Source: a virus
Strand: one strand, 5' to 3'
DNA: 39,398 bases
UHGV virus genome: UHGV-0204463
A program made the translations under genes and the position numbers. A model generated the notes under the pieces. That model saw nothing but the letters and a program-made list of their open reading frames with translations, was not told the DNA's origin and ran no database searches. The first letter of the stretch is position 1. The number at the start of each line of letters is the position of its first letter. This document shows, piece after piece, positions 717 through 38,794 of this stretch.

Positions 717-1133
717 TTATTTATATGCAATTATTTTTCCATTTCGATACGCTTCGGCAAATTCAATTAAAGCCTCTGATTTCATTCGTTGAATACTTCT
801 TTCGGAATATCCAACTTCCCTAGCTATCTTGTAATTAGAGTAATGATCCTGCACACAGAAACTATAATGCAAAATTTGTCTGCTAGTTAGGCTCAATGCC
901 ATAAGCGCAGATAAAATTGCGTCTCTTTCTGCTTCTGCATCTGCTAATTGTACTAGCGCATCTTCTGCTTTATTCCCGTGACTTTGGCTTTTAGGCATAT
1001 CTGTAATAATTGGTGATTTTAAATCTATCAAAGAGCGACCAGCTATTCGCTCTAAACGTCTAAAGTTCTTCAACACATTTCTGGCATTCGCTTTTGTTTG
1101 TCGAAAATCTACTTCTCTTAGCAATTTAATCAA
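717..1133 (-). CDS. ArpU-family phage late-gene transcriptional activator
   Basis: 138-aa ORF; KNFRRLERIAGRSLIDLKSPIITDMP and C-terminal ALIEFAEAYRNGK resemble ArpU-type regulators; lies at distal end of early operon. Confidence 0.7.
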   Translation of the reverse strand: MIKLLREVDFRQTKANARNVLKNFRRLERIAGRSLIDLKSPIITDMPKSQSHGNKAEDALVQLADAEAERDAILSALMALSLTSRQILHYSFCVQDHYSNYKIAREVGYSERSIQRMKSEALIEFAEAYRNGKIIAYK

Positions 1134-1149
1134 GTGAAATCGCTCCTTT

Positions 1150-1160
1150 TGTGGTATAAT
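1150..1160 (+). promoter_or_regulatory. extended -10 promoter-like TGTGGTATAAT on plus strand
   Basis: TGn-TATAAT match; a hairpin plus T-run terminator follows about 45 nt downstream. Confidence 0.25.
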
Positions 1161-1193
1161 AATTTATAATAAACATATCATCATTTAAGAGTT

Positions 1194-1221
1194 GCTTAGC
1201 GGAAACTAAGTAGCTTTTTTT
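1194..1221 (+). terminator. intrinsic terminator-like hairpin CTTAG-CGGAAA-CTAAG followed by T7
   Basis: stem-loop and T-run read directly; first of four hairpins sharing a CGGAAA loop. Confidence 0.4.
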
Positions 1222-1324
1222 ATTTATCCAAATATATATAAGTAATGCTTATCCTTTGCTCATCAGCGACTCTATATGATATAAATTATACTAAGAATAC
1301 TATTCCAATAGCTATTCACTTCTC

Positions 1325-1360
1325 AGCCAGTCGGCGGAAACCGACTGGCTATTTATTTAT
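1325..1360 (+). terminator. hairpin AGCCAGTCGG-CGGAAA-CCGACTGGCT (10-bp perfect stem) followed by ATTTATTTAT
   Basis: read directly. Confidence 0.4.
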
Positions 1361-1500
1361 CAAAATATTCATCACTCATACATGTTTGTAGTCAACAAAT
1401 TATTGGTTGACTATAAAGAAAACAATAATAATTCTACAGTATTTTACAATCTTCCATTCGTCATCTTTCACATCATCTTTATTCATTTGATATTTTCCAT

Positions 1501-1761
1501 CTAATAAATATTTTTGGCATAGAAAGTATTTTCAAATCTATTTTTCAATGGTATAATCACTTTAACTTTCTTGGGGATTTTATTTATGAAATAAATTTCC
1601 TCCTTTTCTACATTAACTTCTGGTAAACAGTTAATAGTAGTACACGTCTCTACAAGAGATTTATTGTCGATTTTTAATCGGCTATTTAATAGCACTTTAT
1701 TTGGGGAAAGTGCTAACTCACACCTAAAGAACAACTGGCGGAAAACAGTTGTTTCTACCAC
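1501..1761 (-). CDS. hypothetical protein (doubtful; GTG start, overlaps conserved hairpin)
   Basis: ORF track only; no recognisable motif. Confidence 0.2.
   Translation of the reverse strand: MVETTVFRQLFFRCELALSPNKVLLNSRLKIDNKSLVETCTTINCLPEVNVEKEEIYFINKIPKKVKVIIPLKNRFENTFYAKNIY
1549..1557 (+). promoter_or_regulatory. promoter-like TTTTCA-N17-TGGTATAAT on plus strand
   Basis: good -35/-10 match read in sequence. Confidence 0.25.
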
Positions 1762-1795
1762 ATAAGTCAGCTAGTGGTCAGCTGGCTTTTTTTGT
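1733..1795 (+). terminator. two hairpins (CAACTG-GCGGAAAA-CAGTTG, then CAGCT-AGTGGT-AGCTG) followed by T7
   Basis: read directly. Confidence 0.4.
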
Positions 1796-1857
1796 TGCCT
1801 TAAATTTCATAGTAATGTATTATTAATTGTCTCTATCTGAGATGAAAATGTATCTAT

Positions 1858-1888
1858 AACTAGCTAGCGGAAACTAGTTAGTTTTTTT
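1858..1888 (+). terminator. hairpin CTAG-CGGAAA-CTAG followed by T7
   Basis: read directly. Confidence 0.4.
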
Positions 1889-2039
1889 ATACTATTTTTG
1901 TTGGTTTTAAAACTACTTAGCCTTTTTATATAAATGTGAACGTCGAATAATTGAATATTAAATTCTTTAAATTTAATCATCTTCTTTACTCGCTTTCTAA
2001 CCGAATAATTCTCTTTGATCTGTTTACCCGTTTTACCCA

Positions 2040-14047: not shown

Positions 14048-14077
14048 AATAATTCACTACCTGTCTAATTCTATTAT

Positions 14078-14150
14078 CGACCATGATGAATTCGAACCAT
14101 CGACCGAATAGTCATGAGCCATTTGCTCTAACCAGCTGAGCTAATGGTCC
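14078..14150 (-). tRNA. tRNA-Met(CAT)-like gene with G1-G72 acceptor mismatch (possibly pseudo or chimeric 3' end)
   Basis: minus strand GGACCAT-TA-GCTC-AGCTGGTTA-GAGC-A-AATGG-CTCATGA-CTATT-CGGTC-GATGG-TTCGAAT-TCATC-ATGGTCG-A folds as cloverleaf, anticodon CAT; no encoded CCA. Confidence 0.5.
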
Positions 14151-14512
14151 AAGTAATAACTAGCTTATTGGGGATAAAATAGTTCTTACTAGTTATAGCT
14201 TAATATATAACAATTTTACTTTACTGATTTTCAATTTTCAACAAAAAAACGACCACCTTATTGAGAAAAGGCGGTCTGCGTGAAAAAATAAGAGTTTAAA
14301 TATGTATAGATATTTTACAATATCTATTTTTTGAGTTCAATATTTTTATGTAAAAAAAGCCGCCTCATTGGGGTAAGGCGACAAGAGGTAGTAATAAAAT
14401 GAAAAATAAAATTGTTTGGTAAAGATATTTTACCTCTTTCTTTTTTTAATTTCAAGTTTTCATTTTACAAAACAATTGTATTTTATTTATAATTCAAATA
14501 TACAACTGTATT

Positions 14513-38084: not shown

Positions 38085-38512
38085 ACTCACTGCAAGACAG
38101 CAACTCCTTTTTGCTTCATGTAACACTTCCAGTTATTTCAAAACATAATCTGCTGTCTGGCCACTAGATATTTTATCTGGTGGTTTTTCATGCGAAAACA
38201 ATCCAAATATCCGACAAAACTTGACAGCTGTGTTACACTTGTTTTAGGTAGCACTCTTTCATAATAGCTAAAGTTCATAAACTACAAATGACACGAGATT
38301 TTCACTAACGCTACCTAGCCACTAGATCCCATTTCTAGTGGTTTTTTATATAAAAATAAGTTTTGGTGTGAATAAGCACTCTTTTATTCTCTATTCTTAT
38401 TTGATATAATTCTTTTAGGTAGCAACTCCTTTTTGTAAATAGCAACCAACTAATTTTTCACGAATGCTACCTAGCCACTAGAACCCATAGTCTAGTGGTT
38501 TTTTTATGTACG
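38085..38512 (+). ncRNA. three tandem sRNA-like cassettes, each a long-range stem enclosing about 55 nt followed by CCACTAGA...TCTAGTGG hairpin and U-run
   Basis: terminator hairpins at about 38160-38190, 38308-38340 and 38475-38505; enclosing stems AGACAGCA/TGCTGTCT, AGGTAGC/GCTACCT, AGGTAGC/GCTACCT show compensatory change; unit 3 preceded by TTTGATATAAT extended -10. Confidence 0.4.
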
Positions 38513-38618: not shown

Positions 38619-38723
38619 AACAATACCTCCAAACAAAAAGAGGCACTTTTAAGCTAGTGCCTCACGTGAATGTAGCAGAAACATCTATTGACGATTCTTT
38701 TATTTAAGTAGCAAAGCTACCTA

Positions 38724-38794
38724 TTGGCGTGGCAGGAATCGAACCTGCCTCTTATCTCACAATATGCTCGTTGCATCCCAGATGCTACACGCCA
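38724..38794 (-). other. tRNA-like element: perfect 7-bp acceptor stem and GCAGG-TTCGATT-CCTGC T-arm, but no foldable anticodon arm
   Basis: minus strand TGGCGTG...GCAGGTTCGATTCCTGCCACGCCA-A; could be att core or remnant. Confidence 0.35.

Follow-up and report, generated by a model that had tools for sequence, protein, structure and literature searches.

ArpU-type activators switch on the packaging and lysis genes in many temperate Gram-positive phages, and their timing is poorly understood. Transcription of the late operon, with its packaging and lysis genes, is activated by ArpU, phage production by phiFL2A needs arpU, and early, untimely expression of the late genes is reportedly harmful to the phage (PMC3753634). 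The question raised here is what occupies the approximately 900-bp gap between rusA and arpU in the virus genome UHGV-0204463, and what it may do to arpU. The DNA analyzed, called the window below, is the whole stretch of 39,398 nucleotides. It is a complete-looking phiFL1-type temperate phage of Enterococcus faecalis. The gap directly follows the replication module, and the protein genes around it, including rusA (2040-2474) and arpU (717-1133; late-gene transcriptional activator, PHROG 248, E 3e-46), are all on the minus strand. The gap contains a tandem array of four independently promoted small-RNA (sRNA) genes on the plus strand, units A to D. Two of them, B and C, belong to the Enterococcus Ref1C family as divergent members.

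Promoters and transcripts of the array

The four units have promoters that correspond to mapped transcription start sites (TSSs) in a close relative. The differential RNA sequencing (dRNA-seq) table for E. faecalis V583 (Michaux et al. 2020; PMC7724050 supplement) includes a prophage whose region around EF2024 (arpU) is collinear with the window. Four primary plus-strand starts are listed, at 1952877, 1953002, 1953273, and 1953538, with step heights of 178, 1603, 92,897, and 229 (PMC7724050). The 50 nt upstream of these starts are the same as window promoters A to D, single-base differences aside. The homologous promoters fire in the V583 lysogen during normal growth, and plus-strand transcription, which the original prediction from the sequence alone had proposed for this gap, is established for this near-identical relative. 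That prediction named two promoters, TGTGGTATAAT and TTTTCA-N17-TGGTATAAT. Both have V583 starts directly downstream, but the number of promoters is four, not two.

Units A and B lie opposite the arpU leader. In V583 the primary arpU start is 1952986(-), giving a 144-nt 5' untranslated region (UTR), and a secondary start at 1953135(-) gives a 293-nt UTR (PMC7724050). By homology the 144-nt UTR of the window is at 1134-1277 on the minus strand, with the secondary start at about 1426. The promoter of unit A (1131-1159, plus strand), found in the sequence and matched by TSS 1952877(+), has the extended -10 box TGgTATAAT at 1151-1159 and overlaps both the start region of arpU and its ribosome-binding site, which are on the opposite strand. 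A TG-N-TATAAT promoter likewise adjoins the arpU start in relatives L004, L006, and L209. Unit A (1168-1222, plus strand) is an sRNA of about 54 nt with a single-stranded 5' tail AACAUAUCAUCAUUU, hairpin H1, and a U-run. It is antisense to the arpU 5' UTR and wholly within it, with its end about 20 nt before the ribosome-binding site. The promoter of unit B, P_B (1256-1285, plus strand; TTGCTC-18-TGaTATAAA), is likewise supported by sequence and by TSS 1953002(+). Its -10 box (1280-1285) abuts or overlaps the minus-strand -10 box of arpU (1285-1290). The starts of P_B and the arpU promoter, P_arpU, are 16 nt apart and fire in opposite directions, and P_B is about 70-fold stronger in the V583 lysogen (step height 1602.8 versus 23 for the arpU TSS). 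Unit B (1293-1420, plus strand, 3' end approximate) has a Ref1C-like order of 5' hairpin, H2, AUUUAUUUAUC linker, and terminator hairpin, and by homology to V583 it lies inside the 293-nt UTR. The terminator hairpin (1385-1417) is decayed, the family loop being replaced by AAAUUAU and the U-run being gone. An intact version of unit B is found in L006.

Any read-through from the early operon would meet units C and D head-on, and a terminator scan of positions 600-2600 found no minus-strand terminator in the rusA-arpU interval. The promoter of unit C (1529-1557, plus strand; TTTTCA-17-TGgTATAAT) corresponds to TSS 1953273(+), which is classed as antisense to EF2025 (PMC7724050). An sRNA antisense to ef2025 was named Ref94 by Innocenti et al. 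2015 (PMC4408782). Because ef2025 is the 261-nt open reading frame (ORF) at 1501-1761, unit C (1564-1796, plus strand, about 230 nt) is the homologue of Ref94. Its 3' half (1690-1796) is Ref1C-like, and its terminator (1764-1795, plus strand) consists of a fifth hairpin (1764-1788) with the second family loop, AGUGGUC, followed by T7. A transcript of about 230 nt had been foreseen, and its start is mapped in V583, but it ends at the fifth hairpin and not at H3. The promoter of unit D (1795-1823, plus strand; TTGCCT-17-TATTAT) has the same upstream 50 nt as TSS 1953538(+). Unit D (1829-1890, plus strand) is an sRNA of about 62 nt with a small 5' hairpin, H4, and a U-run.

Positions 1864-1980 on the minus strand contain what is left of a phiFL1A gp31-like gene (MIKFKEFN.Q..DVHI...). 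The similarity ends exactly at the beginning of unit D, suggesting that a portion of a small early gene gave way to the sRNA array.

The signature hairpins

Four hairpins with the loop CGGAAA are present, all on the plus strand and thus opposite to the surrounding genes, as the original prediction had it, and each is slightly longer than first described. H1 (1187-1218) has 13 bp including three G·U pairs, is followed by T7, and is the terminator of unit A. H2 (1325-1350) has 10 perfect bp and is the counterpart of the Ref1C middle hairpin. H3 (1729-1754) has 9 bp and the loop GCGGAAAA, and it is internal to unit C rather than a terminator. H4 (1858-1883) has 10 bp including one G·U pair, is followed by T7, and is the terminator of unit D. 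The conserved motif is actually 8 nt, G-CGGAAA-C/A, although the CGGAAA core is indeed common to all four loops, each of which contains GGA. The stems had been called completely different. This is mostly so, but TAG...CTA is common to H1 and H4. A T-run had been described after each hairpin. It is clean for H1 and H4, while H2 is followed by ATTTATTTAT and H3 by TTTCTACC. Judged as intrinsic terminators (a stem with G+C pairs, then a U-run), H1 and H4 conform, H2 is weak, and H3 does not qualify. H2 is probably not an efficient terminator.

The combination of this loop with a stem is rare outside the array. The window contains 23 copies of CGGAAA against 16.4 expected, and a flanking stem of more than 4 bp is found only at H1 to H4. 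The terminator scan of 600-2600 gave seven sites where 0.8 were expected, all on the plus strand, and the CGGAAA loop is missing from all of the approximately 30 terminator-like sites in the rest of the window. For a wider background, about 488 kb of E. faecalis chromosomal contigs, about one-sixth of the genome, were used. These records (OR846587-OR846590; loci L207 and L211-L220; 138-162 kb) are labeled UNVERIFIED_ORG and filed as 'Enterococcus phage Efs 1-1-1'. Their content, ordinary chromosomal genes of E. faecalis together with the core Ref1C locus, shows them to be host contigs and not phage. Only one of 176 terminator-like hairpins in them has the CGGAAA loop, and that one is at the Ref1C locus. 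The original prediction would have failed if the loop were equally frequent in ordinary terminators. It is instead rare in them, and a general preference of E. faecalis terminators for this loop is rejected.

Covariation and strand

The units share a covarying stem of about 10 bp with the invariant loop G-CGGAAA-C/A. In an alignment of eight long-form members, 14 of the 19 pairs show compensatory changes. Fifteen distinct variants of the signature hairpin were collected from phages, plasmids, the chromosome, and E. faecium. All of them keep G-CGGAAA followed by C or A, while the stem varies at almost every position. In these variants 94.7% of the cells are paired and 8 of the 10 pairs show double changes, counts that are partly circular because hairpin-formers were chosen as the sample. 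Units recognized by their flanks provide covariation evidence that is not circular. Unit A in the window, L006, L051, and L060 keeps its promoter, its tail CAUAUCAUCAUUU, and its loop, and the stem is replaced. H4 differs from its L006 counterpart by a change of G·U to C-G.

The structure belongs to the plus-strand RNA. The 15 stem variants contain 14 G·U cells and one A·C cell, an excess that places the structure on this strand. Plus-strand units have folding z-scores of -2.8 to -6.4 (unit A -3.8, unit B -6.4), while the arpU leader, a minus-strand RNA, folds like shuffled sequence (z = 0.0). A lambda-type boxB/nut site, which would be a hairpin with a GNRA-like loop in the sense transcript of the operon it regulates, was also considered and was rejected because these G·U and A·C counts and the minus-strand z of 0 favor a structure in RNA that runs opposite to the early operon.

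Unit C appears to have lost and regained its signature hairpin. At 1612-1635 (plus strand) it contains a decayed copy, ATTAACT tctggtaaac AGTTAAT. The phiFL1-type phages have an intact hairpin, GATAACTG-gcggaaaa-CAGTTATC, at the matching site about 55 nt from the start of unit C. H3 is an intact copy that lies further downstream in unit C, within a 38-nt insertion relative to phiFL1A. From the sequence comparison, decay of the original together with a fresh copy in the insertion may be a sign of selection on the hairpin. The loop is replaced in some of the units nearest to arpU. In phiFL1A (L004:1518-1577, plus strand) the same TG-N-TATAAT promoter precedes a different short RNA with the hairpin AGCCGGA-GCAA-TCTGGCT-T7, and in an E. 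faecium phage (L209:2883-2945, plus strand) a promoter of the same type precedes another short RNA with AGGTCGGA-GGAA-TCCGGCTT-T5. GNRA tetraloops thus stand in place of CGGAAA in these arpU-proximal units.

Relationship to Ref1C and Ref94

Ref1C is an sRNA known from 5'tagRACE and northern blots that is present in all sequenced E. faecalis isolates and expressed (PMC3074167). Its Rfam family (RF02845, 'Enterococcus sRNA 1C'; sRNA_103 in V583) has a gathering score of 90 bits. With a permissive E-value threshold the family model matches the plus strand of the window at 1690-1796 (40.6 bits, E 2e-4) and 1289-1386 (39.1 bits, E 4e-4), so that the window units, at 39-41 bits, are below the gathering score. 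Other copies score higher, with 149.8 bits for the chromosomal locus (L207:3001-3130), 93.7 for a copy in an E. faecium phage-plasmid, 81.6 and 70.4 for plasmids, and 55 for L006. The E. faecium copy, directly upstream of arpU, is above the Rfam threshold. In the Ref1C consensus the middle hairpin gaGccagccGGCGGAAAACggcuggCuc matches H2 and H3, and the terminator with the AGUGGUC loop matches the fifth hairpin. H2 and H3 align with the middle hairpin, whose loop is GGCGGAAAAC, over nine pairs, mostly with compensatory changes. H1 and H4 carry a 6-nt form of the family loop. The AGUGGUC terminator with its U-run is present in unit C, decayed in unit B, and absent from units A and D. Other weak Rfam matches (Fst antitoxin, CRISPR repeat, snoRNA, and others; E 2-10) were dismissed as chance.

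A covariance model (R1) built here from long-form members, with units A and D outside the training set, hits all four window units. Unit A scores 25 bits (E 0.009) and unit D 21.6 bits (E 0.06), while the variant of unit D in L006 and L010 scores 28-31 bits. In the chromosomal background R1 finds the two tandem Ref1C units and one further match at E 0.84. Units A and D are apparently short forms that use the signature hairpin with a U-run as their terminator, and their assignment to the family is weak. The antisense sRNA family with a constant loop and variable stems that had been suggested from the sequence is supported by Ref1C, whose consensus hairpin has the same loop.

The window units resemble Ref1C in several ways. 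They share the extended -10 promoter, the middle hairpin loop, the linker AUUUAUCUGG, and, in unit C, the terminator loop, and both have been duplicated in tandem. The chromosomal Ref1C is preceded by a shorter unit with its own TGgTATAAA promoter and the terminator hairpin GATCAGCTGG-CGGAAA-CCAGCTGATC-T7, and the locus (sRNA_103 in V583) has two mapped starts, TSS 2405737 and 2405869 (PMC7724050). For the window units, an own promoter and a primary transcript are found by homology only, from the V583 TSSs and the same upstream sequences. They differ from Ref1C in that their 5' parts have diverged, the terminator of the family has been lost from unit B, nothing but the signature hairpin is retained in units A and D, and the array of four is in a prophage and antisense to arpU. 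Ref1C-related copies also occur on 161 Enterococcus plasmids, typically between fic and relB. A BsrC-family sRNA match (RF01410, 65.6 bits) is found beside the chromosomal Ref1C at L207:3173-3260 (minus strand) in OR846590.1. It is convergent with Ref1C and about 40 nt beyond the Ref1C terminator.

Position next to late-activator genes

Members of the family lie antisense to and upstream of three different types of late-activator gene. Eighty viral contigs were retrieved through ArpU. At these loci all 131 of the R1 matches are on the strand opposite to arpU, no more than about 800 nt upstream of the gene. At least one match is found in 75 of the 80 loci, and two of the other five have no upstream sequence. 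The arrays in phages comprise one to four copies that are interspersed with the promoter and leader of arpU. Since the phages retrieved in this way are closely related to one another, an arpU-independent scan of viral contigs for the DNA pattern GGCGGAAAACN{20,50}CAGTGGTCGG was added, and it gave 37 loci. At 28 of these an ArpU homologue on the opposite strand starts 149-692 nt from the motif. These homologues form two groups, an E. faecalis type and an E. faecium type, with a mutual identity of only 23%. At two loci the neighbor is instead a Sigma70_r4/DUF1492-like regulator, which belongs to the other late-activator family (PMC3753634). Among the remaining loci, four have no relevant flank and one is a chance match in G+C-rich DNA. 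A looser contig scan (GGCGGAAAACN{20,50}AGTGGTC) was discarded, as nearly all of its matches were due to chance. It gave one useful locus, L109.

Possible role of the array

The array probably restrains or times the late activator ArpU by promoter interference combined with antisense action, a reading to which we assign a probability of about 60%. The overlapping P_B and P_arpU would compete for RNA polymerase, and transcription of the array would collide with converging transcription. The array RNAs could pair with the arpU leader, and the exposed GCGGAAA loop may be the first contact, either as a kissing loop or as a determinant for binding of a factor. Drift of the stems may be unconstrained, or selection may favor differences between them that keep tandem copies from recombining. 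A cis-antisense RNA overlaps its target mRNA on the opposite strand, and unit A does so with the 144-nt UTR and unit B with the 293-nt UTR.

Several points weigh against this role. The tie between the array RNAs and ArpU levels is one that we infer rather than take from experiment, and the TSS data come from V583, a close relative, rather than from this exact sequence. Copies of the Ref1C family are also found far from late activators, flanked by unrelated genes on the chromosome and by fic and relB on plasmids, so the basic activity of the family is not specific to arpU. An RNA acting purely as a cis-antisense has no need of an invariant loop. The GCAA and GGAA loops of the arpU-proximal units suggest that the loop may be an element for stability rather than a sequence address. 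Finally, the matches of units A and D to the family model are weak (E 0.009 and 0.06).

The array has similarities to several known groups of antisense RNAs. Phage cis-antisense RNAs that restrain regulators include lambda OOP (against cII), lambda paQ (against Q), and P22 sar (against ant). As in those cases, short constitutive RNAs lie opposite the leader or coding region of a developmental regulator, and promoters converge or overlap. The array differs in having four tandem units with an invariant loop, in the relationship of its units to a host core-genome sRNA and plasmid copies, and in that its effect on arpU is a proposed one. The plasmid copy-control RNAs CopA/CopT and RNAI/RNAII pair through kissing loops whose sequence sets specificity. 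They share with the array a hairpin loop of 6-8 nt on a stable stem, likely the first contact. However, the YUNR U-turn motif is absent from the signature loop and from its complement, and the same loop is found across many unrelated replicons instead of being replicon-specific. In multicopy sRNAs of Gram-positive bacteria such as Listeria LhrC1-5 and S. aureus RNAIII and the Rsa RNAs, C-rich loops with conserved seeds pair with ribosome-binding sites. These resemble the array in having several paralogues, often in tandem, with constant loops and variable stems, in hosts that lack Hfq or do not need it. GCGGAAA is not C-rich, however, and no obvious complement of the ribosome-binding-site type was seen.

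The main rival to control of ArpU by the array is a role in trans that is shared with host Ref1C. The phage RNAs would mimic Ref1C, with the loops GCGGAAAA and AGUGGUC pairing with host mRNAs or titrating a host factor, and the position by arpU would be incidental or secondary. This is possible, though clearly less probable than control of ArpU. It agrees with the presence of Ref1C in all E. faecalis isolates and with its expression (PMC3074167), the copies on 161 plasmids, the very strong expression of unit C in the lysogen (step height 92,897), and the invariance of the loops across chromosome, plasmid, and phage copies. It leaves unexplained the strict antisense, upstream placement by three types of activator gene, and in the 488 kb and the window, about one-sixth of the genome, no site with both loop complements within 150 nt was found beyond the antisense strands of the elements themselves. 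Less probable again is that the GCGGAAA loop is a shared kissing address that docks on a complementary UUUCCGC, which each phage with such a unit would display on its late-activator leader or early read-through RNA. Any family member would then dock whatever its stem, whether from a resident prophage, a plasmid copy, or the core-genome Ref1C. That the hairpins are plain terminators or insulators, which stop plus-strand transcription and owe their loop to common descent or to a stable GNRA-like preference, is slightly less likely still. H1 and H4 are canonical terminators, C-GGAA-A may represent a GGAA tetraloop, and GCAA or GGAA loops are found in the equivalent units of other phages, but all eight loop positions are kept in 15 variants despite near-total change of the stems, and the loop is in just 1 of 176 other terminators of the species. 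In addition, H3 and the Ref1C middle hairpin are internal, and the hairpin of unit C was regained after decay.

Two further explanations are highly improbable. One is that minus-strand proteins are encoded here, by the EF2025-like ORF at 1501-1761 (86 aa) and the ORF at 1864-2109 (81 aa), with the hairpins incidental in coding sequence. Annotations of both ORFs exist in relatives, and phrog_35744 is a match for the one of 86 aa. The region of the 86-aa ORF, however, has a 1-nt indel and the 38-nt insertion compared with phiFL1A, by which the frame is lost, arguing that it is not a gene. The 81-aa ORF overlaps rusA, and only about 16 N-terminal codons of phiFL1A gp31 are kept before unit D. The dominant transcription here is also on the plus strand. 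The original prediction had called both ORFs doubtful. The coding explanation was rejected on the frame disruption. The other, of equally low probability, is a role at the DNA level, by extrusion in single-stranded DNA as a signal for replication, packaging, or recombination, or else a role of the RNAs as a GGA-loop sponge for a CsrA-like protein. The GGA in the four loops and the location of the array just after the replication module would fit. On the other side, G·U pairs would be mismatches in DNA, yet they are common here and limited to one strand, and each hairpin has its own promoter and mapped start. To our knowledge E. faecalis has no CsrA.

Other features of the window

Several other RNA features were noted. 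A ROOL RNA (RF03087) is found at 1-324 on the minus strand, immediately downstream of arpU (144.7 bits, model positions 1-318 of 574), and it is the sole match in the whole window at the Rfam gathering threshold. It runs past the start of the window. Since it is cut by this boundary, the remainder is expected at the far end if the record is circularly permuted. ARAGORN predicts a tRNA-Met at 14076-14151 (minus strand), while the gathering-threshold Rfam scan of the whole window gave no tRNA. A tRNA-like T-arm, GGCAGGTTCGATTCCTGCC, is present on the minus strand at 38715-38790 and was not called by ARAGORN. Relatives have a tRNA between arpU and terS (tRNA-Asn in SEsuP-1; Rfam tRNA matches in L004 and L006). 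Between ROOL and the terminase genes, in non-coding DNA, two tandem plus-strand repeats (38240-38350 and 38410-38505) start with TTTTAGGTAGCA... and have a 3' hairpin, AGCCACTAGA-(CCCAT...)-TCTAGTGGTT, followed by a T-run. The second repeat is preceded by a TGaTATAAT-like box. The repeats resemble a second pair of antisense small-RNA genes, and they have no Rfam match.

Implications

Parts of this system are already on record: the TSS table lists the transcripts, Ref94 has been named, and Rfam has a Ref1C family. In the literature available, the names Ref1C and Ref94 led only to the papers that introduced them, and no functional study of either RNA, or of enterococcal prophage or antisense sRNAs, was found. 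Four results were not found there. Ref94, its neighbors, and Ref1C form one family; what defines this family is a pair of invariant loops, each on a covarying stem; in phages it is present as arrays of one to four copies interleaved with the promoter and leader of arpU; and the same element lies beside unrelated late-activator genes.

Two catalogued Enterococcus sRNAs, Ref1C and Ref94, are thus joined in one family that extends across the chromosome, plasmids, and phages, and its two invariant loops must contact something. If the phage copies act as mimics of Ref1C, they would reprogram the lysogen. If the loop is a kissing address, the family would be an RNA-based network of cross-immunity or late-gene exclusion among Enterococcus mobile elements and their host. 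Strongly expressed, conserved in position, located on top of the arpU promoter and leader, and matched by an equivalent element beside unrelated activator genes in other phages, the array is a concrete candidate for control of the timing of ArpU.

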